Below are positions 15,552 to 62,104 of a stretch of DNA of 64,000 bases, piece by piece. Position 1 is the stretch's first letter, and every line of letters begins with the position of its first letter. The notes beneath the pieces were generated by a model. It did not search any database. It was given only the letters and a program-made list of their open reading frames with translations, and was not told where the DNA came from. A program made the translations under genes and the position numbers. Source of the DNA: Mycobacterium sp. (GTDB lineage: Bacteria > Actinomycetota > Actinomycetes > Mycobacteriales > Mycobacteriaceae); NCBI RefSeq assembly GCF_039583785.1, contig NZ_JAVKSG010000006.1, positions 5,163 to 69,162 of the forward strand, in the 5' to 3' direction.

Positions 15552-15647
15552 CTTCTGGTGATCACAGGTTGCACTGTAGCGGCACCACCTCATGCCAACC
15601 ATCGCACACGCGGTGAGCAGTGGTTTCTTGTGTGCAAGAGTGACGGG

Positions 15648-19291: not shown

Positions 19292-19422
19292 TCCCACCGT
19301 TGACACCAGCACCGGCACCTCACCTGTTTTCCAAACGACGACACATGCGATATCACCGTCGGTAGGCCGGTGGCCGCGAATTGAAAAAGAGGGCAACCCT
19401 CCAGCCAGTGGCTGCTGAGGAC

Positions 19423-19980: not shown

Positions 19981-20166
19981 GCTTACATAATTACATCATT
20001 ACACCGATTGTCACAGCGGTTTCACTCCCCGCGAAACCTGAGAGCAACTGGGCGTAGCAGGTAGCTCAAAGACGCCGGGATGGGCCCACGTCGCGACACC
20101 GCCGTCACGTACGAGACGCTGACCTGGGATATCTCGCCCGACGCGGGGTTTGTGCGCGCGGCGCGC

Positions 20167-43291: not shown

Positions 43292-43509
43292 GCGCGGCGT
43301 AACGGCAGCGCTATCCGGCACGAAGTCACATGGCGGATCGTCGACAAAGGGTTAGCCTTTATGAGGCGGTCGGTCGGAGCCGCAGACCGCCGGCGACGAT
43401 GCGGGCGGTCCCGGGGACGATCCGGACAATCAGACCTCCGGCACACGGATGTAGTGGCGAGCGTGACAGAGCGCTTTCACCGACACAGGAATCGAGGCGA
43501 GCAGCCGCT

Positions 43510-46500: not shown

Positions 46501-47214
46501 TTCATCAGCTCCGGTGAAGCCAAGTGGGGCCAGCTGTCCAGCGTGGTGCTGTTGCTGCCGCACGGACATGAGGGCCAAGGCCCGGACCACACCTCCGGGC
46601 GCATCGAGCGCTTCCTGCAGTTGTGGGCGGAAGGCTCGATGACGATCGCGGTGCCGTCCACGCCGGCCAACTACTTCCACCTGCTGCGCCGCCATGCCCT
46701 CGACGGGGTGAAGCGTCCGCTGATCGTCTTTACCCCGAAGTCGATGCTGCGCAACAAGGCCGCGGTCAGCGACATCAAGGAATTCACCGAAAATCGATTC
46801 CGCTCGGTGCTCGAAGAGCCCACCTACACCGAGGGCGTCGGCGATCGCGACAAGGCCACTCGAATGCTGTTGACCAGCGGCAAGATCTACTACGAGCTGG
46901 CTGCCCGCAAGGCCAAGGACAACCGGGACGACATCGCGATCGTGCGCATCGAGCAACTGGCGCCGCTGCCGTTCCACCGGCTCACCGAGACCCTGGAGCG
47001 CTACCCGAACATCAACCAGTACTTCTGGGTGCAGGAAGAGCCGGCCAACCAGGGCGCCTGGCCCCGGTTCGGTCTGGAGCTGCCCGAGCTCTTCGGAGAC
47101 AAACTGACTGGCATCAAACGGATTTCACGTCGTGCCATGTCGGCGCCGTCGTCGGGCTCGTCGAAGGTGCACGCCGTCGAACAGCAGGACATCATCGACC
47201 TGGCGTTCCGCTGA
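43510..47214 (+). CDS. kgd: Multifunctional 2-oxoglutarate decarboxylase/dehydrogenase (E2-E1 fusion)
   Basis: GTG start [19 protein letters not shown]; [43 protein letters not shown]. Confidence 0.97.
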
Positions 47215-47480
47215 TCGCGGCATGCTCGTGCTGCAGGTGGTGGCTGGTCATGCGCCCTTGATCCGGCAGTGCGGGAACGCGTTCGCTTCGTTCCAGATCT
47301 CGCGGCTTCGACGTGACCGTCGACTGCGGCCCGGCAGCCAATGCTGGTGCTGTCACCCCAGCGTGCTCCCGAACGCCGGTGGCGCTTCGATACGCACGCC
47401 ACCAGTGGGACGAGTCAACCGCAATCAAATCCGGCAAGGATCGGCGGCACCAACCGCGTAGTTTGTCACCCCTGCGCGTC

Positions 47481-47498
47481 TGTCATACTTCCGCGATG
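47481..47498 (+). promoter_or_regulatory. Leaderless-type extended -10 promoter of methyltransferase 1
   Basis: TGT-CATACT-TCCGCG-ATG. Confidence 0.6.
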
Positions 47499-48332
47499 GC
47501 CACCGCGAACCGCCTGACCCGTCGCCCACTAGTTCATCGGCTGGTGATAAACCCGTTCGTCTTCCGGGTGATATTCACGTCATTTGCCACCACCCGGTTC
47601 GCCTCTCAGACACGTCTGCTCGGCGCCGATGACTGGTTGTTCTTCAACTACGGATACGAAGAAGACCCACCAATGGGTATCCCGCTGGACGAGGCCGATG
47701 AACCGCATCGGTACTTCATCCAGCTCTACCACCGCACCGCGACCCAGGTAGACTTGGCCGGCAAGAAGGTGCTGGAGTGCAGCTGCGGCCACGGCGGCGG
47801 GGCCTCATATCTGGTGCGCACGGCACACCCGGCCTCTTACACCGGACTGGACCTGAACCCGGCCGGCATCGAGTTCGCCAAGAACCGGCACCACCTGGCC
47901 AACCTGGATTTCGTGGAGGGCAATGCCCAGGCTCTGCCGTTCACCGACGCGTCGTTCGACGTGCTGGTCAACGTGGAGGCCTCGCACCTCTACCCCGATG
48001 TCCCGAAATTCCTGTCCGAAGTGGCACGGGTGCTGCGTCCGGGCGGGCATTTCCTCTACACCGACTTCCGTCCGCGGTCCGAAGTCGCCGAGTGGGAAGC
48101 GGCGCTGGCCAACTCGTCGCTGCGGCAGATCTCCATGTCGGTCATCGACCAGAATGTGCTGCGCGGCAACGAGAAGAACGCGCCTCGCAAGCACGAGCGG
48201 ATCAGCCGGCACGGCGCGGCAATCAGCCGGATCTTTGCCCGCTACGCCAGCGACATGACCGACTGGGCGTTCAACGGCGCGCTGCGCGGCGGCGAGTACA
48301 CCTACCGCGTGTACTTGTTCACCAAGGACTAG
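47496..48332 (+). CDS. SAM-dependent lipid O-methyltransferase, Rv2952/Fmt family (copy 1)
   Basis: [46 protein letters not shown]-terminal YLFTKD. Confidence 0.88.
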   Translation: MATANRLTRRPLVHRLVINPFVFRVIFTSFATTRFASQTRLLGADDWLFFNYGYEEDPPMGIPLDEADEPHRYFIQLYHRTATQVDLAGKKVLECSCGHGGGASYLVRTAHPASYTGLDLNPAGIEFAKNRHHLANLDFVEGNAQALPFTDASFDVLVNVEASHLYPDVPKFLSEVARVLRPGGHFLYTDFRPRSEVAEWEAALANSSLRQISMSVIDQNVLRGNEKNAPRKHERISRHGAAISRIFARYASDMTDWAFNGALRGGEYTYRVYLFTKD

Positions 48333-48382
48333 AAGCGCCCCGGTACGCTGAAAACTGCTGCTAGACAAATAGAAGGGGTGAC

Positions 48383-49750
48383 ATGGCAACGGCGACGACC
48401 GACCCGGTGCGGCTGCCGCCCGCGCTGCGGTTGCCCAAGCTCGTCACGAGCGTGATTTTCCTGACGTCGCTGCAGTACTCCGTCGCGCCATGGCTGAGTC
48501 GGCACTACGGTGGCCCGTTCACGATCAACCTGCCGCTCTTCGGTAAGACGATCGTCATCCACGACCGCGACATCGTCAAAGAGGTGTACAGCACCAGCTT
48601 CGATCTGATCGAACGCCCGACCAAGATTCTCGGGCAGGCGTTCGGGCCCGGCTCGACCTTCAGCCTGCTCGGCAAGGAGCACTCTGAGCGGCGAAAGCTG
48701 GTGCTGCCCAACTTCTCTGGCAAACGGGTGAAGAATTACGAGCGCATCGTCGAAGACGAGGTGCTGCGCGAAACCGCGAACTGGCCGCAAGGCCAGGAGT
48801 TCGAGACGCTGGAGACGATGACCCGGCTGACGCTCAACGCGATCATGCGGGCCACGTTCGGTGAGCGCGCCGACGCCTTGGACGAACTTCGCATCGTGAT
48901 CCCGCCGCTGATCACACTAGGCTCGCTGATGCAGCGGATGCCGCTGATCGTGCGACGCGAATACGGTCGCTGGAGCCCCGGCGGCAAGCTGGCGGGTTAT
49001 CGGCGGCGGTTCGACGAGGTGATCAACGAACTCATCGCCGAAGCGCGCGCCGAGTCGTCACTGGACGGTCGCACCGACATGCTCGCGCTGCTGCTGCAGG
49101 CCCGCTACGAAGACGGCCGACCAATATCGGATCGCCACATCGCCGACGAGCTACTCACACTCGTCGCGGCCGGCCACGAGACCACCGCTTCGCAGTTGGC
49201 GTGGGCCGTCGAGCGCTTGCGCCGCCATCCCGACGTGATGACGCGACTCGCCGAGGAAGTCGACGCGGGCGGATCGGACCTGCGACAGGCGACGATCTAC
49301 GAAATCCAGCGCGTCCGGCCGACCATCGCGGCGTCGCTGCGCACCACCAAGACCAAAGTTCGGGTGGGCGATTGGGTTCTCCCCCCGGACACCGCGATCA
49401 TGGTCGATTTCCAGCTCGCGCACGAGTCGGACGTCAACTACACCGACCCGGAGGCGTTCAACCCGGACCGATTCATCGGCAACCCGCCGCCGTCGTTCCG
49501 CTGGGTGCCGTTCGGCGGCGGCATAAACCGTTGCGTGGGAGCGTCTTTCGCTCACATGGAGATGGACGTCACGCTGCGGACGCTGTTTCGTGAATTCCGC
49601 TTCACGCCAACCGATGTCCCGGACGAGAGCCGCAACTTTCGCGGCGTGGCCATCGCCCCGGGCAAGGGTGCACGCGCGGTGGTCTACCGTCGCACCGACG
49701 CCGCGGCGAAAGATCGGGACGCGGTCTCGGTCTCCGACCGCAGCAGCTGA
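48383..49750 (+). CDS. Cytochrome P450, CYP138-like
   Basis: VRLPPA, ETANWPQG, AGHETTA, EIQR, PFGGGINRCVGA. Confidence 0.9.
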   Translation: MATATTDPVRLPPALRLPKLVTSVIFLTSLQYSVAPWLSRHYGGPFTINLPLFGKTIVIHDRDIVKEVYSTSFDLIERPTKILGQAFGPGSTFSLLGKEHSERRKLVLPNFSGKRVKNYERIVEDEVLRETANWPQGQEFETLETMTRLTLNAIMRATFGERADALDELRIVIPPLITLGSLMQRMPLIVRREYGRWSPGGKLAGYRRRFDEVINELIAEARAESSLDGRTDMLALLLQARYEDGRPISDRHIADELLTLVAAGHETTASQLAWAVERLRRHPDVMTRLAEEVDAGGSDLRQATIYEIQRVRPTIAASLRTTKTKVRVGDWVLPPDTAIMVDFQLAHESDVNYTDPEAFNPDRFIGNPPPSFRWVPFGGGINRCVGASFAHMEMDVTLRTLFREFRFTPTDVPDESRNFRGVAIAPGKGARAVVYRRTDAAAKDRDAVSVSDRSS

Positions 49751-49764
49751 CTCGAACGCCTGCC

Positions 49765-49783
49765 TGGCATACTTCCCGGCATG
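49765..49783 (+). promoter_or_regulatory. Leaderless-type extended -10 promoter of methyltransferase 2
   Basis: TGG-CATACT-TCCCGGC-ATG. Confidence 0.6.
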
Positions 49784-50587
49784 CCCACGACTACCGAACG
49801 CGTCACCGACATCGGCTACCGCGGCTACAAGGCCTTCATCAACAAGATCTGGTACCCGTTCCTGACGCGTCGGCTCGACACGCAGGACGTCACCTTCCTC
49901 AACTACGGGTATGAGGGTGACCCCCCACTGAACCTTCCGCTGGACGAGAACGACGCGGCCAACCGGTACTCGATCAACCTCTACAACCAGGTCGCCTCTC
50001 AGATCGACCTCGCCGGCAAAAAGGTGCTGGAGTGCAGCTGCGGCCACGGCGGCGGCGCGTCGTACATCGTGCGGACGTTCAAGCCGGCCGAATACACCGG
50101 ACTGGACTACAACCCGGACGGTGTCGCCTACTGCACGGAGCACCACAAGCTGCCCGGCCTGAATTTCGTACACGGCAATGCCGAGGACCTGCCCTTCGGC
50201 GACAACTCGTTCGACGCCGTCGTGAATGTCGAAGCCTCACATGCCTATCCGACGCTCTCGAAGTTCCTGTCCGAGGTGGCCCGAGTCCTGAAGCCGGGCG
50301 GAAGCCTGCTCTACGCCGACTTCCGCGGCCGCCCCGAATTCCCGGTGTGGAAGGGCGCTCTCGAAGCGATGCCGCTGCGCCAGGTTTCCATGCGGGTCAT
50401 CAACGACGGCGTGATCCGCTCACTGGACGCCAGCGCGCAGCACAAGCTCGACCTGATCAGCGCGCAGCTGCCGAAGTTGTTCCGGCCGTTCGGTCGCCAC
50501 TTCGCCGGCGTACCCGGTACCGGGATCTACAACGTCATCTCCAGCGGTGGCGCGGAGTACCGCATCTACCAATTCATCAAGGACTGA
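49781..50587 (+). CDS. SAM-dependent lipid O-methyltransferase, Rv2952/Fmt family (copy 2)
   Basis: [49 protein letters not shown]. Confidence 0.88.
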   Translation: MPTTTERVTDIGYRGYKAFINKIWYPFLTRRLDTQDVTFLNYGYEGDPPLNLPLDENDAANRYSINLYNQVASQIDLAGKKVLECSCGHGGGASYIVRTFKPAEYTGLDYNPDGVAYCTEHHKLPGLNFVHGNAEDLPFGDNSFDAVVNVEASHAYPTLSKFLSEVARVLKPGGSLLYADFRGRPEFPVWKGALEAMPLRQVSMRVINDGVIRSLDASAQHKLDLISAQLPKLFRPFGRHFAGVPGTGIYNVISSGGAEYRIYQFIKD

Positions 50588-50594
50588 TCGACGG

Positions 50595-52088
50595 TCAGGC
50601 TATCGCGTAGTCCGACATCGGGAATCGGTCCTGCTCCTTCACGGCGCTGCGCACCGATGTCGGACGAAACAGCGGCGCCTCGCCCTTGCCGGTGTGGTTG
50701 CGGAACCAGTAGGACCGCGAGCCAACACAATTGCCGAGCTCGAATGCGGAATCTTTCATCAGCGTGGTCATCCGCTCGAGAAAGCGGGCGTTGGCGTCTT
50801 CGGTGACCTCGAAGGTACGAGCGCCGCACTGCCGCAGCTCACCGAACAGTCGTTCCATGTGCTTCATCTGATATTCCACGGTGTTGAACCAGGACAGGCC
50901 CACCCACGCGTACGGGCTGGCCATCGACAGGAAGTTCGGGAAGCCCGGCATCGAAATACCCTCGTAGGCCTGGAATTGCGTCTCGCGCCACCACTTTCCG
51001 AGGTTCTTGCCGTCGCGTCCGATCACTTCGATCGCGGGCAGGTTGGCCTCCCAGACGTCGAATCCGGTTGCCAGCACCAAGGTGTCGATCAAACGCTTGG
51101 TGCCGTCGTTGGCGACGATGCCGTCGACCTCGATCCGATCGATGCCGTTGGTCTCCAGGTGCACGTGGGATTTGGTGAACGCTCGGTAGAAGTCGTTGGA
51201 TATCGTCGGCCGCTTGCAGCCGAAGTCGAAGTCGGGGTCCAGCTTTCGGGACAGCTCACGGTTGCGCACCAGGAGCAGCCGGTACAGCCTGGAGAACTGC
51301 GAGATGCCCTTGTTGAAAACCTTGAAGTAGCGGTACTTCCACATCGTGAGGACCATGGAGAGTTCGAGGATCGCGTCGGTGTAGGAGCGCAGGAGTCGCT
51401 GAGTGAGCGGGAACCGCGCGAAAACGCGCTGCGCCGCCGGGAAGAACTTCACGTCTAATTTCGGCAGCACCCAGATCGGGGTGCGCTGATACACCGTGAG
51501 CTCGGCGACTTCCTTGGCCAATTCGGGAACGACCTGCACGCCGGTGGAGCCGGTTCCGATCACGGCGGCGCGGCGGCCGGTCGGCGAGAAGTCGTCATCC
51601 CACTGAGCGGTGTGGATGATGCGGCCGCCGAACGTCTCGATGCCGGGGATGTCCGGCATCTTGGGTTGACACAGAAAGCCGGTGGCGGCGATCAGGAACT
51701 GGGTGGTCAACGTCTCGCCGCCGACCAACGTAAGGCGCCACACCTGGGCGTCTTCGTCCCAGCGGGCGCCCTCGACGCAGGTGTTGAACCGCATGAAACG
51801 GCGGACGTCGTACTTCTCGGCCACGTGCACGGCGTAGTTCTTGAGTTCGGAACCCGGCGCGTACATCCGCGACCAGTACGGGTTCGGCTCGAAACGGTAG
51901 GAGAAGGTGGGCGACGGTTGATCGACCGAAAGACCGGGATAGTGGTTGACGTGCCACGTTCCACCCAGGTCGTCTTCGCGGTCGACGATCAGAACGTTCT
52001 CGTACCCCAAGCTCTTCAGTTGGATCGCAGCGCCGATTCCGCCGAAACCCGCCCCCACGATGATCACATCGAACTGCTGGTCATCCAT
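50595..52088 (-). CDS. Baeyer-Villiger-type flavin monooxygenase
   Basis: GAGFGG, GGTWHVNHYPG, type I BVMO fingerprint FGGRIIHTAQWD, GTGSTG, ATGF. Confidence 0.92.
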   Translation of the reverse strand: MDDQQFDVIIVGAGFGGIGAAIQLKSLGYENVLIVDREDDLGGTWHVNHYPGLSVDQPSPTFSYRFEPNPYWSRMYAPGSELKNYAVHVAEKYDVRRFMRFNTCVEGARWDEDAQVWRLTLVGGETLTTQFLIAATGFLCQPKMPDIPGIETFGGRIIHTAQWDDDFSPTGRRAAVIGTGSTGVQVVPELAKEVAELTVYQRTPIWVLPKLDVKFFPAAQRVFARFPLTQRLLRSYTDAILELSMVLTMWKYRYFKVFNKGISQFSRLYRLLLVRNRELSRKLDPDFDFGCKRPTISNDFYRAFTKSHVHLETNGIDRIEVDGIVANDGTKRLIDTLVLATGFDVWEANLPAIEVIGRDGKNLGKWWRETQFQAYEGISMPGFPNFLSMASPYAWVGLSWFNTVEYQMKHMERLFGELRQCGARTFEVTEDANARFLERMTTLMKDSAFELGNCVGSRSYWFRNHTGKGEAPLFRPTSVRSAVKEQDRFPMSDYAIA

Positions 52089-52462
52089 AAGCTAAAGGGT
52101 AGCTTCCTACAGCACCAACGGTGAAACGGCGCCGAACCGTTCGCGCTGTTCGGCGGCTCGGGGCCCGGCCTGCGACGGTGTCAAGGGCGCCCAGCTCGCT
52201 ACCGGTGTGATGATTCCGTAGTCTTCCACCCGGGAGGGTCAACCGGCGGACACGGCATGTGTACTGTCTAATGGGATCTGGCTGTTGGCGGGGCACAACT
52301 CAGCTGGACACGAGCCACCCGGGTTACCTGAGATGTTCACGAGAATGAGGCCGTTCCGTACCAGGTCTTTCATTCTCGCCCGGTAGTCTCATGTTCCGAC
52401 TATGCCCATCGATCGCATGTGCGCGAGCCGCATGCCGAACTGGTCCGGAGGGAGGGCTCAGT

Positions 52463-53557
52463 TTGCCGGTCACGCTGGCGATCTTCGTCGTGCTGGGCAC
52501 CGTCCTCTCGGTGAGCCTGCTGCTAGTGCTCGCCTTTTTCGGCGTGGTCAGGCGCATGAAGCGCAACATGGATCTCAGTGCCGACACCGACTACGCCGCC
52601 ACCCTGACGTCACTGTCGGAAGCTTCGGTGCGTCACTTCAATCCCTACACCGACGTCGACTGGGAAGCGCCGATCTTCTCGGTCACCGAGAACGACCCGC
52701 GCTGGGTGCTCTCCACGTCGGACCCGCTGGGAGGTCATCCCTGGTACCAGGCCCAACCGCTGGACACTCGGGTCACGATCGGCATGTGGCGCCAAGCCAA
52801 CATGGCGAAAGTCGGTACGCAGTTCGAGGGCGTTTTGGTCCGCGGCCTGTTGCACTACGCATTCTGGGTGCCGAACGGCTCCCCCGAGTACCGCTACTGC
52901 CTGCACGAATCCATCGAGGAGTGCAGCCACAGCCTGATGTTCCAGGAGATCGTCAACCGCATCGGCGTCGACGTTCCCGGCATGCCTATCTGGATGCGGG
53001 TGCTCTCGCCGCTGATTCCGCTCTACGCGGGTCCGTTACCGAACGCGTTCTTCTTCGGGGTCTTGGCCGGCGAAGTGCCGTTCGACTACCTGCAGACCAA
53101 CTTGCTGCGCGAACCCGATCCTGGCGCGCTGCACCCGATCATGAGGGACCTGTTCGCGATTCACGTCGCCGAAGAAGCCCGCCACATCTCCTTTGCCCAC
53201 GAGTACCTGCAACGGCGGGTTCCGCGGCTGACGTGGTTCAGCCGATTCTGGCTGTCGCTCTACGTGCCGTTCGTGATGCGGATGCTGGGCCAGGCAATGG
53301 TGGTGCCGCCGCGGCGGTTCTTCCGTCAGTTCGACATCCCCCGCATAGTGCGCAGAGAATTGTATTCCGGTGCACCGGACTCGCGTCAGACGCTACGGAA
53401 CATGTTCGGCGATGTCCGCATGCTGTGCGACGAACTGGGGTTGATGAACCCGTTCGCTCTGGTGATGTGGCGTATTTGCCGGATCAGCGGTCCCGCATCG
53501 CGTTACCGCAGTGAGCCGCCGCGCACCAACGTTTCGGTTTCGGCGAACGCCGCTTAA
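52463..53557 (+). CDS. AurF-family di-iron oxygenase (Rv0885-like) with hydrophobic N-terminal extension
   Basis: FNPYTDVDW, FE, EECSH, LAGE, HVAEEARH iron-ligand pattern; TTG 52463 follows GGAGGG. Alternative starts 52391 and 52556. Confidence 0.85.
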   Translation: MPVTLAIFVVLGTVLSVSLLLVLAFFGVVRRMKRNMDLSADTDYAATLTSLSEASVRHFNPYTDVDWEAPIFSVTENDPRWVLSTSDPLGGHPWYQAQPLDTRVTIGMWRQANMAKVGTQFEGVLVRGLLHYAFWVPNGSPEYRYCLHESIEECSHSLMFQEIVNRIGVDVPGMPIWMRVLSPLIPLYAGPLPNAFFFGVLAGEVPFDYLQTNLLREPDPGALHPIMRDLFAIHVAEEARHISFAHEYLQRRVPRLTWFSRFWLSLYVPFVMRMLGQAMVVPPRRFFRQFDIPRIVRRELYSGAPDSRQTLRNMFGDVRMLCDELGLMNPFALVMWRICRISGPASRYRSEPPRTNVSVSANAA

Positions 53558-53675
53558 ATCCTTTGCCGCATAACTCATCAGGCGTTCGCGCGTGGTGTCG
53601 GGGCATCGACGAGTTCGGGTCGTCGAGTGATGTCCGCGTCACAAAGGCAGGCCACCACAAGCACAGCCGACGCTG

Positions 53676-53693
53676 TGCGATACTTCCTGCATG
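53676..53693 (+). promoter_or_regulatory. Leaderless-type extended -10 promoter of methyltransferase 3
   Basis: TGC-GATACT-TCCTGC-ATG. Confidence 0.55.
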
Positions 53694-54527
53694 GTTCGTA
53701 GCCCTTCATTGGACAACGTCGGCGCAAGTCTCGTCTACCGCATCGGTTCGACGGCGACGTACAAGAAACTCTTCCGGTACTGGTACCCGCTGATGACCAA
53801 GCGGCTGCACAACCAGGACGACGTCCAGTTCCTGAACTGGGGCTACGAGGAGGACCCGCCACTGGGCCTGCCGCTCGACCCCGCCGACGAGCCCAACCGA
53901 TACAGCATTCAGCTTTACCACCAGACCGCCACCCAGGACGGCGTCGACCTTGCCGGCAAAAAGGTTTTGGAGTGCAGCTCCGGCCACGGCGGTGGCGCCT
54001 CTTACCTGTCCCGGACGCTGAAGCCGGCGTCCTACACCGGCCTCGACTTCAATGCGGCGGGTGTCAAATTTTGCAACGAGCGGCACAAGGTGCCGGGTCT
54101 GAGCTTCGTGCACGGCGACGCCGAAAACCTGCCGTTCCCGGACGAATCCTTCGACGCGGTGATCAACGTCGAGGCCTCGCACATCTACCCGCACTTCGAC
54201 CGCTTCCTCAGCGAGGTCAACCGGGTGCTGCGGCCCGGCGGGCACTTTCTGCACGTGGACTTCCGCAACCGAGACAATTTCGGGAACTGGGAGTCGGATC
54301 TGGCGAACTCGGGTCTGCGGCAGGTCTCGTCGCGGGTCATCAACAACGAGGTCCTGCGCGGCCTCAAGAAGAACTCGGCTCGGTCGAACGAGATCATCGA
54401 CACTCGCCTGCCGGCATTCCTGCGCAAGTTCGGCCGCGAGTTTGCCGTGGTCGACGGTTCGTGGTTCTACAACGACCTCGAGCGCGGTGAAATCGACTAC
54501 CGCGCATACCATCTCACGAAGGACTGA
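53691..54527 (+). CDS. SAM-dependent lipid O-methyltransferase, Rv2952/Fmt family (copy 3, closest to Rv2952)
   Basis: [56 protein letters not shown]. Confidence 0.9.
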
Positions 54528-54585
54528 CGCCGTTGAAGGGCGATTGCCCTTGCGTCGGTAGGTCTGCACGAGGGGGTTTGTCCGC

Positions 54586-55902
54586 ATGACGCTGGCTCGC
54601 AGGCTGCGATTTCGCGCCAGCCTGATGAAGGTCGGTGTCGACGGGGCACTCGGGGTGGCACGGGACAAGGCCACCTCCTACGGCTACTCGTTGACCGGCC
54701 GGGAAACCGCGCCCGCCACCGACTTCGACCCGTTCTCGGCAGAAGTCATGCACGACCCGTATCCGGGCTACCAGTCCCTGCTGAACGGCGACGACGTTCC
54801 AGGAGTCTGGTACAACCGCAAACGCGGCATCTGGATCATCGCGGGCTACGACGACGTCCGAAAGGCGTTGCGCGACAACGAACAATTGTCGTCAGCACAG
54901 AGCCAGAGCCGATTCCGGGTATACCTGCCGTCGATGAACGCCGCCGACCCGCCTGCCCACACCCGGCTGCGCAAGTTCGTCTCGCGCGCTTTTACCGCGC
55001 GGGCGATGACGGCCTGGCAGAAGAACATCAACGAGGTCGCCGACGAGCTGGTCGACACCGTGATCGCCCAACGTTACACCGAGGCCGTCAACGGCCTGGC
55101 CAAGCCGCTACCGACCCGGTTGATCGCCAGGATGCTCGGCATTCCGCAGCACGATCAGCCGCAGTTTGTGGCATGGTCGGACGACATGGTGGCCGGTGCC
55201 TTCGCGCCGCTGACCCCGCACGGCGTGCGGCTGTCCGCCCGCTCGGGTAGCGCGACCGCGGCGATGCGCCGCAGCCTCGACCCGCTGATCGCGCAGCGAC
55301 GCCGCACTCCCGGCGACGACCTGATCTCGATGATGACGCCGGCCGACGCCGACGATGTGCTCACCGACGACGAAATCTTCTGGAGTGCCGCAATGTTGAT
55401 CGGCGCCGGCAGCGAAACGACGACGAACATGTTGTCCGGTTTGCTGTTGACGCTGGCCCAGCGGCCCGAACTGTACGCGCGGCTGCGTGCGCACCCGGAG
55501 TTGATTCCGGCCGCCGTCGAAGAGCAGCTGCGAATGGGCTCGCCGGTGCAGGGCTTCTACCGCACCGCGACGTGCGATTACACCGTGGGGGCCACCACGA
55601 TTCCGGCCGGCGCGCGGGTGCTGCTGCTGTTCGCCGCCGCCAACCGCGACCCGCGCCGCTACCCCGACCCGGACACCTTCGACCTCGATCGCAATCCGAC
55701 CGACCACCTCGCATTCGGCGGCGGCGTCCATTACTGCCTGGGTGTACCGCTGACCCGGCTGGAGGGCGCCCGGGTGTTCTCCCAACTGCTGCCCCGGGTC
55801 GAACAGATTCGCCTGACCGGTGAGTACCGCTATCTCGACAACCCGACAATGCGTGGGCTGGAACATCTTCCGCTGGAGTTGGTCCCCGCCAAGGGTATGT
55901 GA
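54586..55902 (+). CDS. Cytochrome P450 (bacterial class I type; family not assigned)
   Basis: DPYPGY, DPPAHTRLR, GAGSETTTN, EEQLR, FGGGVHYCLG. Confidence 0.92.
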   Translation: MTLARRLRFRASLMKVGVDGALGVARDKATSYGYSLTGRETAPATDFDPFSAEVMHDPYPGYQSLLNGDDVPGVWYNRKRGIWIIAGYDDVRKALRDNEQLSSAQSQSRFRVYLPSMNAADPPAHTRLRKFVSRAFTARAMTAWQKNINEVADELVDTVIAQRYTEAVNGLAKPLPTRLIARMLGIPQHDQPQFVAWSDDMVAGAFAPLTPHGVRLSARSGSATAAMRRSLDPLIAQRRRTPGDDLISMMTPADADDVLTDDEIFWSAAMLIGAGSETTTNMLSGLLLTLAQRPELYARLRAHPELIPAAVEEQLRMGSPVQGFYRTATCDYTVGATTIPAGARVLLLFAAANRDPRRYPDPDTFDLDRNPTDHLAFGGGVHYCLGVPLTRLEGARVFSQLLPRVEQIRLTGEYRYLDNPTMRGLEHLPLELVPAKGM

Positions 55903-55912
55903 TCGGCGAGGC

Positions 55913-56698
55913 TCAAAGCCCGCGGCTCACGAGCCAGCTGTCGATGCGTTCGGCGACCGCGGCCCAGCCGGGTTCGAGCATCATGTTGTGACCCATGTCG
56001 GGGAAGAACTCGGCCTGGGTGCCGTAAGCGCGGGCGGTGGCGAGGATTTCCTTGCGGGTGTGCGCGCCGTCCTCGTCGGCTCCGAGCACCAGGACCGGCG
56101 CGGTCACCTTCTTGGGTCGCGGCAGCCGCAGCAACAGACTGTCGATGCCGATGCGCGAGCTGTCCTCTTGCAGGCGGGCCGCGTACTTTTCGACGTCGGC
56201 TTCCGGCGTGTGCGTCGAGAAGAACCGCTCCCGCGCCAGCTGCGGCGGATTGATGTACGGCAGTGCTTTGCCAGTGATCGTCATCTTGACGAAATCCGAC
56301 GGGCGTTGCCGTATCCACCGCAACGCATTTCCGAGGTTTCCCTGCGGAGGAACGGACGTCATCAAAACGCCGGCCGGAGCGTCGTGCGACTCCAGATACT
56401 TCTGCACGATCAGACCGCCCATGGAGTGACCGATGACCACCGGGGAGCTGGGCAGCGTGTCGGCGACCGAGCTGACGTCGGCGACATAGTCGGCGACCGA
56501 GCAGGCCCACAGCGGCTTGTCAGTCAGGCTTTCGCCGTGGCCGCGAAAGCTCAACGCGACTGCGCAGTAATCCTTGTCGGCGAAGTAGCTGAGGAAGTTC
56601 TCGTCCCAACACCAAGCGGCATGCCAGACCCCGTGGACAAAAAGCAGCGGGGCGGGATGCGCCTCGCTGACACTGCCCTTCTCGATCACCTCTAGCAC
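55913..56698 (-). CDS. Alpha/beta hydrolase (esterase/lysophospholipase-like)
   Basis: FVHG, FRGHGES, GHSMGG nucleophile, GADED, GHNMM. Confidence 0.9.
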   Translation of the reverse strand: MLEVIEKGSVSEAHPAPLLFVHGVWHAAWCWDENFLSYFADKDYCAVALSFRGHGESLTDKPLWACSVADYVADVSSVADTLPSSPVVIGHSMGGLIVQKYLESHDAPAGVLMTSVPPQGNLGNALRWIRQRPSDFVKMTITGKALPYINPPQLARERFFSTHTPEADVEKYAARLQEDSSRIGIDSLLLRLPRPKKVTAPVLVLGADEDGAHTRKEILATARAYGTQAEFFPDMGHNMMLEPGWAAVAERIDSWLVSRGL

Positions 56699-56766
56699 CG
56701 CGATAGCCTATCTGTCCGCTTTACCGGAACTCAGCAGTGTCCAAGAATCCGTATATCGCCATGTCG

Positions 56767-57576
56767 TCAATGGAGTTTCCTCTCTGCGCGCCACGCAAGC
56801 AGCGGCAGCAGTTGCTCGTGCGGCGCAAAACGACAACACGCCGCGACCAGTCGGTTCATCCGACCCGGAACGACGCGGCACTTGTCTGCGGCCAATCCGT
56901 CGATCGCGGCGCGGGCGACCTGGTCGGCGGACTTCCACATGAAGCCAGGCAGGGTGGCGGCCCGCTCACCGGGGTCGAAGCCGGCCACCACATCGAACCC
57001 GGTGTCGACCGGTCCGGGACACAACGCGCTTGCCACGACTCCGGTTCCGCCCAACTCGCTGCGCAGACTTTCGGTGTAGGACAACACAAATGCCTTCGCC
57101 GCACCGTATGTCGCATGCCCGGGCAGCGGGTAGAGCCCGGCCAGCGAGGACACGTTCAGCACCGCGCCGCGGCCCCGCTCGACCATACCCGGCAGAAACC
57201 GGCTGCACAGGTCCACCACGGCGGCGACGTCGACCTCGACGAGGTTGAGTTGTTGCTCCGGAATCGATTTCGCTACCGGAGCACGCACCGCCAGGCCGGC
57301 GTTGTTGATCAGGATGTCCGGTGTCACGCCCAACGCGGCGACCCGGCCCGGAAGCGCCGCGCGGTCCGCCCTGCTCGACAAGTCAGCGGTCAGGACGTGC
57401 GCCTTGCAATTCAACCCGTCGGCGAGTGCCTGCAGGCGGTCGGTCCGCCGAGCCACCAGCACCAGCTGATGCCCACGTCGCGCAAGCTCGAGCGCAATGG
57501 CCTCACCAATGCCCGACGAGGCGCCGGTGACGACTGCCACGCGGTTTGCCGACGGTTCCGGGAGAGCCACGCGCAC
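56767..57576 (-). CDS. Short-chain dehydrogenase/reductase
   Basis: TGASSGIG, INNAG, NVSS, YGAAK. Confidence 0.92.
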   Translation of the reverse strand: MRVALPEPSANRVAVVTGASSGIGEAIALELARRGHQLVLVARRTDRLQALADGLNCKAHVLTADLSSRADRAALPGRVAALGVTPDILINNAGLAVRAPVAKSIPEQQLNLVEVDVAAVVDLCSRFLPGMVERGRGAVLNVSSLAGLYPLPGHATYGAAKAFVLSYTESLRSELGGTGVVASALCPGPVDTGFDVVAGFDPGERAATLPGFMWKSADQVARAAIDGLAADKCRVVPGRMNRLVAACCRFAPHEQLLPLLAWRAERKLH

Positions 57577-57707: not shown

Positions 57708-58973
57708 GTGAATTGGAATTCGATGCCGTCGTGGAAAGCCCGCGGGCTTGGTTTTGGACTGTTGGCAGGCGCCTGCGCTCTGAACGCAGCACCGGCGTGG
57801 GCGGACGCACCTGACCCAACTGATTACACCGCGCTGGTTCTCGGCCATGCGTTTCTGCCCCAGCCGAACGCGACGTACATGCAGGAGGTGATCGACACCT
57901 ATGTCGATCCCACAACTCCTTTCGAGGGGCAGCCGACGTACAACGTCGTCGGCGATCCGGTCAGCGTGTACACGCCCGAGACCGACTACACCACGGGGCT
58001 GACCCAGGGCGTCGCCGACCTGAACAGCCAGCTCACTCCGCTACTAACGGCGAATCCCGACGCCCACGTCGTCGTCGCCGGCTACTCGATGAGCCCCTCC
58101 GACATCACCCAGGAGATGATCAACCTCCAGGCTACGGGTGTGAAGGACCCGAACCTGGTCTTCGTGTTGGCAGAGGATCTCAACAACCCCGACGGAGGAT
58201 TCTTCACGCGGCTCCCGGGTTTTGGCGGCGAGACCCTGCCTGCGACACCCGCGGATACTCCATACACCACCGACATTTACAGCATCGAATACAGCGGGGC
58301 GTCCGACTTTCCCCAGTACGACGGCAACACGTTTGCGGACCTGAACGCCGCGGACGGTTACATCGACCTTCATCCCTACCTGCTGCCCGGCTGGCCGGCG
58401 TATTTCACGCCATCAGAGCTCGCCGGCGCGGTACCGGAACCCACGTCGGGAGCTGACGTCGCCACCAATTACTACCTCATTCCCACCCAGGATCTGCCGC
58501 TGCTGAACGTGCTTCGTCTGGAGCCCGGCGCACCGTCGGCGGACGCCGATCTGCTCCAGCCCGACATGCGGGTGCTGGTCGACCTGGGTTACAACTGGAC
58601 CGGCGACGCGAACGTCAGCACTCCGGCAACCCTGACAAACCCGGACATCGACACGACCGCGGTCGACTCTTACCTCACCGCCGGGGCCGACCAAGGCATG
58701 ATCAACGCCCTGGTGGACATGGGAGTGCTGCCGAAATCCGACCTGACGGGCTTGGCGGATATGTACCCCTACGTGCCGGATGTCGCGAACCTGATGAGTG
58801 GCGCCCTTACCGACAACACCGCTGCGGCGCTAGACGCGACGACCTCGGCCAGCTTGCTGACCACCGATCTGGCCAGCTCGACCAACCCGCTGGCGGCTGA
58901 CTTTGCCTCCTTCGCCCCGGGAATGGCCACCGATCTCGCCAATTACTTCCAACTTCTCGCCGGCTCGCTCTGA
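57708..58973 (+). CDS. Secreted PE-PPE-domain (cutinase-like fold) protein, highly acidic
   Basis: Signal peptide ending APAWA|D; AGYSMS, NNPDGGFFTR, IEYSGASDFPQY, LHPY, LVDLGY. No PE/PPE N-terminal domain. Confidence 0.82.
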   Translation: MNWNSMPSWKARGLGFGLLAGACALNAAPAWADAPDPTDYTALVLGHAFLPQPNATYMQEVIDTYVDPTTPFEGQPTYNVVGDPVSVYTPETDYTTGLTQGVADLNSQLTPLLTANPDAHVVVAGYSMSPSDITQEMINLQATGVKDPNLVFVLAEDLNNPDGGFFTRLPGFGGETLPATPADTPYTTDIYSIEYSGASDFPQYDGNTFADLNAADGYIDLHPYLLPGWPAYFTPSELAGAVPEPTSGADVATNYYLIPTQDLPLLNVLRLEPGAPSADADLLQPDMRVLVDLGYNWTGDANVSTPATLTNPDIDTTAVDSYLTAGADQGMINALVDMGVLPKSDLTGLADMYPYVPDVANLMSGALTDNTAAALDATTSASLLTTDLASSTNPLAADFASFAPGMATDLANYFQLLAGSL

Positions 58974-58988: not shown

Positions 58989-59819
58989 TTGAATTCAAAG
59001 CTTGTCGCGCTGATCACCGGTGCGACGAGTGGTATCGGCGAAGCAACCGCCTACCGACTGCACGACCGTGGCTATACGGTGTTCGCCACCGGGCGCAACC
59101 CCGATGCCCTGGATGCCCTGCGGCGCAAGGGTTTACCGGCCCGTGAGCTCGACGTCACCGACGAGGCCGCCGTGGATCGACTCGTCGAGGAGATCAACGC
59201 CGAGCACGGCGGGGTCGACGTCCTGGTCAACAGCGCCGGCTACCCGCTCCCCCGCCCGCTCGAGCAAGTGGAGCTGAGCGAACTGCGGCATCTGTTCGAG
59301 ACCAATGTGGTTGCCACCCTTCATTTGTCGCAGGCGGTGTTGCCGACGATGCGCGCACGCGGTCAGGGCAGGATCGTCACGATCGGCAGCACCGGTGGAC
59401 GGTTCACCAGCCCGGGCGCCGGCGCATATCACGTCGTCAAGTACGGCGTCGAGGCGCTGTCGCTGTCGTTGGGCGCCGAGGTGGCACCGTTCGGTGTCCG
59501 TGTCGTGCTGATCGACCCGACCGGGGTGCGAACGCGTTTCGTCAGTGCGCAATTCGAGACGGAGCACTCCTACCCCGACGACGATCCCTACGGCGACTTC
59601 AAGATTCGCTATTCCCAAACCACCCGCAGGTTGGCCACGGCGAAGGGACTGACAGTGTCTGCCGACACGGTGGCCCGTGTCGTCATGCGGGCCGTGCAGG
59701 CCAAGAATCCCAAGCCCCGCTACGTCGTCGGGGCGTCCGGAAAGGCCTCCGTGCTGGCCCGCACGTTACTGAGCGACCGGATGTGGGACCGCGTCATGAG
59801 GCTGGGCATGCGGGGCTGA
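58989..59819 (+). CDS. Short-chain dehydrogenase/reductase
   Basis: TGATSGIG, NSAG, YHVVK, VVLIDP, PKPRYVVG; TTG start. Confidence 0.9.
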   Translation: MNSKLVALITGATSGIGEATAYRLHDRGYTVFATGRNPDALDALRRKGLPARELDVTDEAAVDRLVEEINAEHGGVDVLVNSAGYPLPRPLEQVELSELRHLFETNVVATLHLSQAVLPTMRARGQGRIVTIGSTGGRFTSPGAGAYHVVKYGVEALSLSLGAEVAPFGVRVVLIDPTGVRTRFVSAQFETEHSYPDDDPYGDFKIRYSQTTRRLATAKGLTVSADTVARVVMRAVQAKNPKPRYVVGASGKASVLARTLLSDRMWDRVMRLGMRG

Positions 59820-59916: not shown

Positions 59917-61554
59917 TCAGAACATGCTCAGGAGCGACTGCGGCACGAAGCTGCTGAGGTCTGCGCTGATCTGGGCGCTGACCTCGGCAAGTATTTGACT
60001 TACCGAGTCGGCGCCCGCCGTCGCGCCCAGGCTGGACATCAGCGCGCTCAGATCGGTCGACATCGACGGATCCAAGCTACTCGCGCTGGCCGCCGAGCCC
60101 GTCAGGCCCGGGTCGCCCTGTGTCGGATCGAGGAGGAACCCGACGGTGTTGGCGTTGTTCAAAGACGAGAAGTTCCAGTCGTTGTTGGTCAACAGGGTCA
60201 ACAGGTCCTGCCCGTCGAGATTGGGGTCGTAACCGCCATAGGTCGGGTCGAAGGTTGTCGTCAATGGATCGGCCGCGTACGCCACGTAGTTGGGGTCGGT
60301 CACGATCCCGTCGTTGGTGAACAGCGCCGGCAGTTCGGGGTTGATGGCAGCCAGGTCCGCGTCGTAGGTCGCCAGTTGATCCGGGGTCAGGTTGTAGTAG
60401 CCGGTCTGCAGCAGCGCGACGGCATCGTCGGTTTCGGCCTGGGTCGAGGTGCTATCGGTGGTGCTGCTCAGGTAGTCCTGAATCGTGGTGTTGCTCGGAT
60501 CCCAGGCCAGGATGTCCTGCACCAGCGCTGTCTGCGTGTCGGCAGCGGGGATGTCGCACAGCGCCGGGCAGGCCGGGCTGCCCTCGACGAAGGGGTCGAA
60601 GGCCACCACCGTCGACGCGGCGAAGTTCTGGAAGGCTTGGGTGAGGTCTGTGAGGCTGGGCAGGTCGATGCCGGTGCCGTCGATCCCGGAGGTCGACGGC
60701 GTGGCCAGCAGGCTGTTGTAGAAGTCCTGGAAGGGCCCGAGCAGGTTCAGCTTGAACGTGGCGTTCTCCCACGGCATGTAGTCACCGGCACCCGTACCGT
60801 TGACACCGGTCGTGCCGTCGAAGCCGAAGGCGCTGGCCACTCCGCCACCGGTGCCGGTGTCGGGGCTGGGGTCGATGATGCCGCCCGGGTCGGTGGTGGA
60901 GTTGAACGTGAAGTTACCGCTGGTCAACTCCGAGAGCGGCACCTGCAACCAGTGCGAGAAAAGTCCGAAGGGCTCACCGTTTTGGGTGGTGGCCGTCCCG
61001 CCGAGGGCCTGGAAGAAGCCGATGTCGCGGTCGAAAGCGGTGCTGCCGGTGATGACCTCCGGTGGTGTCATCGGATAGCAGGTCTGCGCGTCGCAGGAGG
61101 CACTGACCGGCAGTTCGGCGGCGGCCAGCATCGCGATCTGCTGCGCCAGACCCGCCGTACCGTCCGACAGCGCGGTCGGATCGATTTCCGGCTGGTCGAG
61201 CCCGGAAATCTGCGAAAACGGGAGCGCTATGTCGAGGAGTCCCATGTAGTGGCCGATGTCGCCGGGGTCGGTTCCCCACAGGTTCGTGGCGTTGGGGACC
61301 CACCAGTCCCCGCCGAAGAACAGCGAATTCGACAGCACATCGAGGCCCTGGATCTCGTTGGACGGGATGTTCGCGATGTCGTCGAACAGGTTGATCGGAA
61401 CGTTGAAGATGTCACTGCTGGCGTCGACCAGTCGGGTGTCGATATGGCGGACCGGGGGTTGCCCCGGTCGCAGCGGGAGTTGCACTCCCGCGATCGCGCC
61501 GGTCGCTAACAATGCCGCACTCGCCAAGATGCACGGACGTCCCGCAGCGCGCAT
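59917..61554 (-). CDS. Secreted hyper-acidic protein of unknown family, paralogue A
   Basis: N-terminus MRAAGRPCILASAALLATGAIA...PPVRHIDTRLVD (mycobacterial export-type leader); GC3-biased coding; collinear with 62105-63802. Start at ATG 61554. Confidence 0.85.
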   Translation of the reverse strand: MRAAGRPCILASAALLATGAIAGVQLPLRPGQPPVRHIDTRLVDASSDIFNVPINLFDDIANIPSNEIQGLDVLSNSLFFGGDWWVPNATNLWGTDPGDIGHYMGLLDIALPFSQISGLDQPEIDPTALSDGTAGLAQQIAMLAAAELPVSASCDAQTCYPMTPPEVITGSTAFDRDIGFFQALGGTATTQNGEPFGLFSHWLQVPLSELTSGNFTFNSTTDPGGIIDPSPDTGTGGGVASAFGFDGTTGVNGTGAGDYMPWENATFKLNLLGPFQDFYNSLLATPSTSGIDGTGIDLPSLTDLTQAFQNFAASTVVAFDPFVEGSPACPALCDIPAADTQTALVQDILAWDPSNTTIQDYLSSTTDSTSTQAETDDAVALLQTGYYNLTPDQLATYDADLAAINPELPALFTNDGIVTDPNYVAYAADPLTTTFDPTYGGYDPNLDGQDLLTLLTNNDWNFSSLNNANTVGFLLDPTQGDPGLTGSAASASSLDPSMSTDLSALMSSLGATAGADSVSQILAEVSAQISADLSSFVPQSLLSMF

Positions 61555-62104
61555 GGCGCCCCCTCTCCCCAGACGGTCAAAACTTCGCGCACTCAAGCTA
61601 CACTAAGGGAATCTAAGTTCGGGCGAGTACCTCAAAACTGGGCGTAAGGATATCGTTAGCAAGCCCTTTATTAGATTGACGCCGAGTAGGCGAGCAACAA
61701 AAGTCCAATTTCTTGGATATCCGCCGGCGAGGGACGCGCCGACTATGTCAATCCCCTTTCCGCGGTAAACACCGACCAGCCTGTGAGATCGGCGTCTAAT
61801 TATGACTCGACGCCGACCCCGCACGCCGCTGATCGCAGTTCTGCAGTCAGGAGTCGACAACCGCAGTCAAGGAGCCCCGACACAGACTCGTCAGATCCGG
61901 GCGGTCAGGCCCGGCGGACCTCCTGCTAGCGGAGTAAGGCGGCTTGACGTCGATGTCCGGTTGGATGGGCGGCGAGCTTTTGGCTAAGCGGCGGTCCTTG
62001 ACAAGTCTTGGCGCCCAGCCCTGAAACTCTCGTGCTGCAGCAAAAGCCACGGACTCGCTGCCGCCCGCCTGCGCGTTGGGGGCCGGCCGACCGACCGTCA
62101 AAGC

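Follow-up and report, generated by a model that had tools for sequence, protein, structure and literature searches.

A mycobacterial block of three O-methyltransferases and four oxygenases as the putative tailoring section of a PDIM/DIM-type lipid locus

The nine-gene block

Nine ORFs, all of them full length, occupy 47496-57576 of the window (the whole 64,000-nucleotide stretch of a Mycobacterium sp. contig, C6, that was analysed), and their order and identities are those that a sequence-only reading had proposed, i.e., three methyltransferases, four oxygenases, a hydrolase and a short-chain dehydrogenase/reductase (SDR), with their catalytic motifs intact. All nine genes are under purifying selection, with dN/dS values of 0.04-0.20 against three relatives, a pairwise measure that is blind to constraint lost only very recently. 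The locus contains no redox partner (ferredoxin or reductase) that could serve the P450s or the di-iron enzyme, the block itself has no regulator, uptake system or beta-oxidation gene, and a Pfam search detected neither a carrier protein nor a ligase inside 47496-57576.

The three Rv2952/Fmt-family methyltransferases are MT1 (47496-48332, + strand), a SAM-dependent O-methyltransferase matching Pfam Methyltransf_11, MT2 (49781-50587, +) and MT3 (53691-54527, +). They score 361, 366 and 435 bits, respectively, on the Rv2952-type NCBIfam model NF045823, all above its cut-off of 300 bits, and fall under the cut-off of the Mtf2/Fmt model, though they are full-length matches to both. The motif ECSCGHGGGA is intact in their translations, and the start of MT1 is 47496, a 339-aa ORF from 47313 being an over-extended call. 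Because this genome has seven close paralogues of these methyltransferases, the equivalog name is not applicable to all of them. Conservation within the block is highest for MT3, also the best Rv2952-type match, which is 95-97% identical among close relatives with a dN/dS of 0.04-0.055, below that of kgd; MT1 has a dN/dS of 0.14-0.16. The clades of MT1 (support 100/99) and of MT3 both take in Mycolicibacter and, judging from the trees, are older than the split between Mycobacterium and Mycolicibacter.

MT2 falls in a different clade (support 98/97), one made up of methyltransferases paired with P450s. Its neighbor P450a (48383-49750, +; PF00067, 184 bits) has only CYP51/BM3-class relatives in the PDB, at about 85 bits. 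This genome has three adjacent pairs of a P450a-type and an MT2-type gene (on contigs C6, C7 and C40), relatives carry from zero to three tandem copies of the P450a-type gene, mostly followed by an MT2-type gene, and MT2-type genes always have a P450 partner. The pairs behave as a repeated two-gene cassette, and the pairing of hydroxylase and methyltransferase that had been suggested from the letters was upheld by the three genomic pairs, the tandem units of relatives and the separate methyltransferase clade. The second P450, P450b (54586-55902, +; PF00067), has a dN/dS of 0.04-0.07 and, among solved structures, comes closest to a CYP125 ancestor, TamI and PikC (209-234 bits); the heme Cys loops of both P450s are intact.

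The AurF-family di-iron oxygenase (52463-53557, +; PF11583, 331 bits) is a protein of 364 aa with an N-terminal transmembrane helix, and its ORF begins at a TTG after GGAGGGAGGG, in agreement with the gene call in a related locus (L055). Seven residues (E146, E177, H180, E228, H258, E262 and H265) are invariant across 21 sequences and are read here as putative metal ligands. A phmmer search with the protein matched no PDB chain; the top Foldseek matches of its AF2 model (pLDDT 82) were AurF and CmlI, with TM scores of 0.55-0.61 at 14-18% identity. The company kept by AurF-like genes elsewhere includes a FAAL and a PpsA-like PKS gene, immediately downstream in five other MAG loci, an MmpL gene adjoining one such gene in Hoyosella, and an FprB-like ferredoxin-reductase fusion.

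The remaining three genes are on the minus strand. The type I Baeyer-Villiger monooxygenase (BVMO; 50595-52088) was identified from PDB matches to cyclohexanone and phenylacetone monooxygenases (200-240 bits) and from its motifs, the fingerprint FGGRIIHTAQWD and two GxGxxG (Rossmann) motifs being intact in the translation. The alpha/beta hydrolase (55913-56698; Abhydrolase_6, 97 bits), a candidate esterase with an intact GHSMGG motif, is kept in every complete locus and has a 70% paralogue at C6:88763-89530. SDR1 (56767-57576; adh_short, 147 bits) has intact TGASSGIG and YGAAK motifs, and its top NCBIfam match is mycolate reductase, at 223 bits with the cut-off of 380 not reached.

Gene order in relatives and the lost mmpL

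Of the 46 related loci, about 30 have the genes in the order of the block, an arrangement far beyond chance, and the carriers are Mycobacterium soil MAGs and isolates, M. shimoidei and Mycolicibacter; M. shimoidei DSM 44152, Mycolicibacter nonchromogenicus DSM 44164 and M. arupensis DSM 44942 are carriers that can be cultured. In the clade of the window, the composite order is kgd, mmpL (-), MT1, P450a, MT2 (with more P450-methyltransferase units in some genomes), BVMO (-), an optional PE-PPE gene, the AurF-like gene, MT3, P450b, the hydrolase (-), SDR1 (-), a PE-PPE gene, SDR2, unkA (-), unkB (-), a nitroreductase-family gene (NTR; -), an LCM-type methyltransferase gene, a PapA5-like gene (-), five Pps-like modular PKS genes (-) and a FAAL gene (-). 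The downstream extension covered four relatives. Two were followed to the end, and in them the block is bounded by mmpL on one side and by the run from NTR to FAAL on the other; in the other two, PapA and the first PKS modules were reached within the DNA covered. A PapA5-like gene lies 1-7 kb beyond the locus segment in four of five relative genomes, L013, the fifth, standing outside this count. Mycolicibacter has the same sandwich with other outer flanks, namely ileS-like and PPE genes rather than kgd; there, mmpL comes directly after the BVMO gene and in the same direction, SDR2 is internal to the block, with P450b and MT1 as its neighbors, and in the Mycolicibacter-type genome followed furthest a thioesterase-like ORF comes after FAAL.

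The genes that follow the nine in the window belong to this order. The first (57708..58973, +; PF08237, 129 bits) encodes a candidate secreted PE-PPE-domain serine hydrolase/acyltransferase with a signal peptide and a GYSMS motif, and is kept with the locus in both lineages. SDR2 (58989..59819, +; adh_short, 154 bits) is next, and then come unkA and unkB (59917..63802, -), two secreted paralogues that have no Pfam match, i.e., an unrecognised family, with an unusable AF2 model (pLDDT 55); both lineages keep the pair at a position between the tailoring genes and PapA.

The exporter gene has been lost from the window. Present in 23 related loci, and adjoining kgd in the Mycobacterium clade, mmpL survives here as a remnant with the gene's upstream region (47216..47358, -), to which four relatives (L013, L003, L006 and L002) align in blastn at the 5' end of their MMPL genes of about 1000 aa. 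The stub consists of only the first 12 codons, MTSHHLQHEHAA, from 47251 down to 47216; a deletion has removed the remaining 2.9 kb or so and left the stub directly against the kgd stop codon. This genome has nine paralogous, near-full-length MmpL genes, the best of which is only 63% identical to the cluster MmpL of L013.

The PKS region has also changed, so that in this genome the locus is remodelled. A group made up of a PapA5-like gene, followed by two type I PKS genes, and a FAAL gene (C6:72338-92369) begins about 3 kb after the end of the window and lies 8-28 kb past the block, and its PKS genes are different from the five-PKS set of relatives. The orthologues of those five genes are on contig C4, accompanied there by a separate Drr-like ABC pair, a second PapA and a TesA-like thioesterase upstream of FAAL. 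Downstream of the block there are also an IS605 TnpB gene and duplicates of the NTR and hydrolase genes, and PKS_B has neither a KR domain nor a recognisable AT specificity motif. What had been called an orphan cluster with no scaffold synthase and no transporter is therefore such only within 47496-57576, and the idea that its scaffold is made elsewhere found no support, in view of the PapA5-like, PKS and FAAL genes that flank the block in relatives.

A putative lipid pathway and its alternatives

The nine genes are probably the tailoring section of a conserved PDIM/DIM-type lipid locus of about 55 kb with a putative product, which bears out the lipid-tailoring part of the sequence-only reading. 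Conserved adjacency, however strong, does not prove a single pathway. A FAAL-primed polyketide chain with hydroxyl and keto groups would come from the Pps-like line, further oxygen functions would be put on it by P450a, P450b and the membrane-anchored AurF-like enzyme, and the three methyltransferases would convert secondary alcohols to methoxy groups, with P450a and MT2 acting as a hydroxylate-then-methylate cassette. SDR1 and SDR2 could interconvert keto and hydroxyl groups, and the BVMO could turn a ketone into an ester for cleavage with the hydrolase. The polyol would then be esterified by the PapA5-like enzyme, and MmpL, the secreted PE-PPE hydrolase and unkA/unkB may serve export and assembly.

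The PKS genes of relatives encode, in order, KS-AT-(DH)-KR-ACP, ACP-KS-AT-KR-ACP, KS-AT-DH-KR-ACP twice, and KS-AT-ACP-Condensation. PapA matches only PapA5 models (best 612 bits, under the PapA5 equivalog cut-off of 716), and FAAL scores 880 on its subfamily model against a cut-off of 775. Phthiocerol synthesis uses HAFH-type malonyl ATs, whereas the AT motifs of modules 1-4 are VASH, so the scaffold is not canonical phthiocerol; the third module also has no ER domain, which PpsC carries. With the exporter gone and the orthologous five-PKS line on another contig, the block in this genome may serve a different scaffold or none.

It is possible, though unlikely, that the block is a stranded relic of the mmpL deletion and PKS rearrangement, producing no exported lipid and intact only since the damage is recent. 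The 12-codon stub, the orthologous PKS set elsewhere, which has a PapA and a Drr-like transporter to itself, the TnpB gene and duplicated copies, and the state of PKS_B all fit such a history. Against it are the nine full-length ORFs, the low dN/dS, as low as kgd in MT3 and P450b (with the blindness to recent loss noted above), the PapA5-like, PKS and FAAL genes that are still adjacent, and the nine MmpL paralogues, which could substitute.

P450, SDR, BVMO and hydrolase are also the classic set for subterminal oxidation, and the block, with no carrier protein or ligase inside it, could be a self-standing catabolic or detoxifying island for alkanes or ketones (P450, then SDR, BVMO and esterase), its methyltransferases capping products and its lipid-gene neighbors incidental. 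This is quite improbable, given its setting, flanked by mmpL and PapA/PKS in each of two lineages that differ in their outer flanks, the BVMO gene directly upstream of and co-directional with mmpL in Mycolicibacter, the lipid hydroxyls that characterised members of the methyltransferase family methylate, according to the two NCBIfam model names, and a block that contains no regulator, uptake system or beta-oxidation gene; the detoxification alternative raised earlier gained no specific support. That the block acts instead on mycolic acids, taking keto- to wax-ester mycolates via the BVMO together with hydrolytic, reductive and O-methylating steps, is very improbable, for although SDR1 has mycolate reductase as its top match and both mycolate types occur in the M. 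terrae complex and M. shimoidei, that match is far under cut-off, the methyltransferases are Rv2952/Fmt-type and not of the mycolic acid (CMAS) family, the locus context favours a PKS product as substrate, and wax-ester mycolates occur in many species, whereas no AurF orthologue of the cluster type with more than about 67% identity was found in 22 sampled same-genus genomes.

Comparison with known systems

The tailoring section of a PDIM/DIM-type locus, as preferred here, is best set beside the PDIM/PGL locus of M. tuberculosis (tesA, fadD26, ppsA-E, drrABC, papA5, mas, fadD28, mmpL7, Rv2951c and Rv2952). Shared are a FAAL and five modular PKS ending in KS-AT-ACP-C, a PapA5-family acyltransferase, an MmpL exporter, Rv2952-family O-methyltransferases, a thioesterase by FAAL (TesA-like on contig C4, and the thioesterase-like ORF of one relative) and, on C4, the Drr-like pair. 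The M. tuberculosis locus, as described, is without P450s, BVMO, AurF-like oxygenase, hydrolase, SDR pair, PE-PPE and unkA/unkB, and has one methyltransferase as against three or more here; conversely, the conserved part here has no F420-dependent Rv2951c-type reductase, the locus has no mas/fadD28 pair, and module 3 and the VASH motifs differ as described. The present locus is also found in M. shimoidei, Mycolicibacter lineages and soil Mycobacterium, which are not known as PDIM producers.

Other precedents cover parts of the block. The mymA operon of M. tuberculosis (Rv3083-Rv3089: BVMO, LipR hydrolase, SDR and others) resembles the block in grouping genes for a BVMO, an alpha/beta hydrolase and an SDR, likewise in connection with cell-envelope lipids, but as described it is without methyltransferases, P450s, an AurF-like gene or a PKS/PapA context. 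The AurF/CmlI arylamine N-oxygenases share the Pfam domain, the Glu/His pattern and the best structural match with the di-iron protein, which differs in its membrane helix, its low identity and its partners, lipid genes (MmpL, FAAL, PKS) or the FprB-like fusion in place of arylamine pathways. Rv2952 and Fmt/Mtf2 are matched by MT1-3 over the full length of both models, with the Rv2952-type cut-off exceeded, the differences being the seven paralogues here and the P450 pairing of MT2-type genes. Finally, the Chp1/Chp2-type secreted acyltransferases, which adjoin mmpL8 and mmpL10 in the SL-1 and PAT loci, set a precedent for a secreted PE-PPE serine hydrolase gene within an MmpL/PapA/PKS locus, the putative hydrolase here being distinguished by its GYSMS motif.

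The nine-gene block and its conservation

The nine genes that follow kgd (43330-47214) are, in our judgement, probably the tailoring section of a phthiocerol dimycocerosate (PDIM)-type lipid locus, and not an orphan cluster. The gene order that the sequence-only reading had given for the region after kgd was borne out by an ORF listing with Pfam and NCBIfam scans: MT1 (47496-48332, +), P450a (48383-49750, +), MT2 (49781-50587, +), a BVMO (50595-52088, -), an AurF-family protein (52463-53557, +), MT3 (53691-54527, +), P450b (54586-55902, +), an alpha/beta hydrolase (55913-56698, -) and SDR1 (56767-57576, -). Gene spacing and strand suggest the transcription units MT1-P450a-MT2, BVMO, AurF-MT3-P450b and SDR1-hydrolase, with two more just beyond the nine genes, PE-PPE-SDR2 and unkB with unkA, the last two encoding secreted paralogues of an unrecognised family.

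MT1, MT2 and MT3 are Rv2952/Fmt-family methyltransferases, which scored 361, 366 and 435 bits against the Rv2952-type NCBIfam model NF045823, above its cut-off of 300, and all three fell below the cut-off of the Mtf2/Fmt model. The BVMO is a genuine type I enzyme, with the fingerprint FGGRIIHTAQWD (type I pattern FxGxxxHxxxW[P/D]), two Rossmann motifs and scores of 200-240 bits against the cyclohexanone and phenylacetone monooxygenases of the PDB. Both P450s match Pfam and have the heme-binding loop FxxGxxxCxG (FGGGINRCVG in P450a, FGGGVHYCLG in P450b); P450b is closest to CYP125, TamI and PikC-type enzymes in the PDB, and the PDB relatives of P450a are weak and of the CYP51/BM3 class only. 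A 339-aa ORF for MT1, with window positions 47313-47495 as its extra part, is an over-extension whose first 61 codons cross a leftover mmpL promoter region; similarity to the relatives sets in near 47474, in keeping with a start at the ATG at 47496.

A contig scan of genomes with the AurF-like protein as query yielded 46 loci, and tblastn with all window proteins showed that about 30 share this gene order. Most of these are soil Mycobacterium MAGs, joined by Mycobacterium sp. 1245111.1 and M. shimoidei DSM 44152. Mycolicibacter (arupensis, nonchromogenicus, nativiensis and crassicus) has a rearranged yet contiguous version, in the order BVMO(-), AurF, MT3, P450b, SDR2, MT1, hydrolase(-), SDR1(-), PE-PPE, unkA(-), unkB(-), and the stable core among the loci is BVMO, AurF, MT3, P450b and hydrolase. 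Against three relatives, dN/dS was 0.04-0.20 for all nine genes, with MT3 and P450b constrained as tightly as kgd. No description of the locus was found in the literature searched, and one could still exist in a non-open-access paper.

Two further features of these loci were noted. The gap between BVMO and AurF in the window is a 375-bp divergent intergenic region that lacks the extra PE-PPE-domain gene found there (at about 8400-9500) in loci L004, L007, L014, L016-18, L020-24 and L033, a gene that scores 227 bits in M. shimoidei. The unkA and unkB genes (59917-63802) have no Pfam match, separate the tailoring genes from PapA in both lineages, and change more quickly than the enzymes do (dN/dS 0.31-0.38); the AF2 model of unkA, built from 20 sequences, had a pLDDT of 55, too poor for a structure search.

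The AurF-like protein and the P450-methyltransferase pairs

The start of the AurF-like gene is a TTG at 52463, which gives a protein of 364 aa, and the gene call on an independent assembly agrees. AlphaFold modelled an N-terminal transmembrane helix with confidence. Seven residues, E146, E177, H180, E228, H258, E262 and H265, are invariant in 21 homologues and were read as metal ligands. No PDB relative was found by phmmer; the top Foldseek matches of the model were AurF and CmlI (14-18% identity, TM 0.55-0.61), followed by acyl-ACP desaturases and RNR R2. From its residues, its fold matches and its membership of the AurF Pfam family (PF11583), the protein is therefore a ferritin-like di-iron oxygenase. 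That it would carry out arylamine N-oxygenation should not be assumed, because the 14-18% identity, the membrane anchor and the lipid-gene neighbourhoods argue against such an assumption.

The neighbourhoods of AurF-like genes, which add to the case for a lipid role, are of three kinds. In the first, the AurF-like gene precedes an FprB-like ferredoxin-reductase fusion, as on contig C73 of the same genome and in L043, L045 and L046; the second is the block itself; and in the third, in five other MAG loci (L034-36, L039 and L040), it lies immediately upstream of a fatty acyl-AMP ligase (FAAL) gene and a PpsA-like PKS gene. Those five loci (about 10100-21000) come from soil Actinomycetota MAGs, and their AurF-like genes show 63-70% identity; their FAAL and PKS genes share 60-71% identity with FadD and PKS_A of the window's contig, C6. 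At C73:12753-15652, a 62% AurF-like paralogue is directly followed by a gene that fuses two [4Fe-4S] ferredoxin domains to an FAD reductase; the pairing recurs in Hoyosella and Segniliparus loci as well as on the L043 contig. In Hoyosella an MmpL gene is transcribed divergently from the pair. The C73-type fusion pair may be an electron supply that the AurF-like copy of the block borrows. No function for Rv0885 was found in the literature searched.

The P450a-type gene is present in the relatives in 0 to 3 tandem copies, most of them followed by an MT2-type gene, and P450a-type and MT2-type pairs occur elsewhere in the same genome at C7:15368-17578 and C40:14391-16728. That the extra P450-methyltransferase units of the relatives are relocated copies of the C7 and C40 pairs was ruled out by their identity of only 52-69%. 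A maximum-likelihood tree resolved three old methyltransferase clades, namely MT1, MT3 and the P450-paired enzymes, and the MT1 and MT3 clades include Mycolicibacter; the three methyltransferases of the block, 53-60% identical in pairs, are therefore not the product of a recent local triplication. Two other arrangements were noted. A 6.8-kb contig carries a mini-cluster of P450a-like, PE-PPE and BVMO-like genes (C108:1345-5938), and in the close relative L042 an MMPL gene in three ORFs (4631-7544) lies between MT1 and BVMO, the position held elsewhere by P450a-MT2, where it is either a pseudogene or the result of long-read frameshift errors.

Exporter and scaffold genes

The sequence-only reading had reported neither a transporter nor a scaffold synthase inside the block, and this is true of the block alone. 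An MMPL-family gene of about 1000 aa is part of the locus in 23 related loci, between kgd and MT1 in the Mycobacterium clade and immediately downstream of BVMO on the same strand in Mycolicibacter, where an ileS-like gene and a PPE gene take the place of kgd as outer neighbours. In the window, all that is left of mmpL immediately after the kgd stop is its first 12 codons (MTSHHLQHEHAA, 47251 down to 47216, minus strand) and its upstream region, a stub defined by DNA alignment with four relatives; about 2.9 kb has been deleted. This genome has therefore lost its transporter secondarily, and the closest MmpL found elsewhere in it is 63% identical to that of the L013 cluster.

The window covers positions 5163-69162 of C6, which is 93.7 kb long. 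Searching the genome for KS domains located two PKS genes on C6 beyond the window, in a region that also has a PapA5-like gene and a FAAL gene; calls of an orphan cluster near the edge of a sequence stretch need their flanks checked. In order, this region holds a nitroreductase-family gene (C6:69106-69846, -), an LCM-type methyltransferase (C6:71515-72345, +), the PapA5-like acyltransferase (C6:72338-73798, -), PKS_B, of architecture KS-AT-(DH)-ACP (C6:73659-77657, -), PKS_A, (ACP)-KS-AT-(DH)-KR-ACP (C6:77654-83191, -), a 465-aa ORF with no family match (C6:83578-84975, +), a luciferase-like oxidoreductase (C6:85063-86214, +), a second nitroreductase-family gene (-), an IS605 TnpB (C6:86957-88306, -), a 70% paralogue of the hydrolase (C6:88763-89530, -), a CMAS-family methyltransferase (C6:89564-90430, -), the FAAL (C6:90507-92369, -) and a further methyltransferase (C6:92552-93469, -). 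PapA scored 184 bits against PF16911 and matched only PapA5 models, the best at 612 bits against a cut-off of 716. The TnpB gene lies between the duplicated copies of the nitroreductase-family gene and the hydrolase, and is a possible agent of local rearrangement.

Downstream DNA was examined in four relatives. Of five relative genomes, four (all but L013) have a PapA orthologue 1-7 kb outside the fetched locus. The two relatives followed to the end have unkA/B, NTR, LCM, PapA(-), five PKS genes(-) and FAAL(-), and the stretches obtained from M. shimoidei and M. arupensis extend as far as PapA and the first PKS modules. The five PKS genes (J304, the relative with L051/L052) are Pps-like in architecture, the last being KS-AT-ACP-Condensation; their Pps membership is assigned by architecture alone because NCBIfam holds no Pps-specific models. 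The J304 FAAL, found by tblastn, is 56% identical to that of C6. In the window's own genome, orthologues of the relatives' five PKS genes and FAAL (75-91% identity) lie not beside the block but at C4:68722-96161, with a TesA-like thioesterase ahead of them and, behind them, an ABC ATPase paired with an ABC-2 permease, a further PapA (67% identical to that on C6), another LCM gene and a P450. The Drr-like ABC pair was found only on C4. This genome therefore has two PDIM-like loci whose partners have seemingly been exchanged relative to the relatives.

The two regions, C6:72338-93469 and C4:67539-102605, share one layout: FAAL, PKS genes, an optional ABC pair, PapA and a divergent LCM methyltransferase. 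The relatives' PapA has its orthologue on C6 (79%), while those of their PKS genes sit on C4. This swap suggests a reciprocal recombination or the acquisition of a second locus, and an assembly artefact might also account for it.

A predicted pathway and its likeness to the PDIM locus

In the pathway that we infer, the oxygenases would introduce hydroxyl or keto groups into a FAAL/PKS-derived chain, and the Rv2952/Fmt-family enzymes would methylate the resulting alcohols. The BVMO, hydrolase and SDRs would remodel a ketone, PapA would esterify the product, and MmpL, the PE-PPE protein and unkA/B would export and assemble it. Far more tentatively, and with considerable doubt on our part, the locus might specify a new family of multiply methoxylated, oxidatively trimmed, methyl-branched polyol ester lipids in M. 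shimoidei, Mycolicibacter and related soil mycobacteria, with the membrane-anchored AurF-family enzyme as a lipid-chain oxygenase and the P450-methyltransferase pair as a portable methoxy-installing cassette. If true, PF11583 would gain its first lipid role, and there would be a clue to what the widespread Rv0885-fprB-type gene pair does.

Waxes of the PDIM family are of major importance for permeability and virulence, and to our knowledge they are limited to a few pathogenic slow growers. That environmental and opportunistic mycobacteria have a PDIM-related assembly line with a large oxidation and methylation section built in leads us to predict a new class of envelope lipid, which can be sought in the culturable type strains that carry the locus. 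The locus also places three little-understood enzyme groups in a genomic context: the many paralogues of Rv2952-like methyltransferases, orphan P450s of mycobacteria, and the uncharacterised AurF-like (Rv0885-type) di-iron proteins.

The likeness to the PDIM locus extends to a FAAL-primed line of five PKS genes ending in KS-AT-ACP-Condensation (in the relatives, with orthologues on C4), an Rv2952-type O-methyltransferase (three in the block above the NF045823 cut-off) and an MmpL exporter (in 23 related loci, deleted in the window). Compared with the canonical PDIM locus, however, the related loci have many extra enzymes and no conserved Rv2951c-type F420-dependent ketoreductase; the luciferase-like gene at C6:85063-86214 gave only weak F420-LLM matches, and was rejected as an Rv2951c equivalent because it has no counterpart in the downstream stretches covered in four relatives. 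Unlike the PDIM line, none of the five PKS genes has an ER domain, and there is no fully reducing (DH-ER-KR) third module. Possible counterparts of a mycocerosic acid synthase with its FadD28 partner lie elsewhere in the genome, as PKS ORFs with an ER motif on C29 (with an adjoining FadD), C33 and C5. Modules 1-4 have the AT motif VASH and module 5 has HAFH, which, under the motif-specificity rule that we take to apply, differs from the malonyl-specific ATs of PDIM-type modules 1-3. From the extra enzymes, the lack of a conserved F420 reductase and of an ER domain, and the VASH motifs, the product should therefore be a different lipid from PDIM, probably methyl-branched and more heavily oxygenated.
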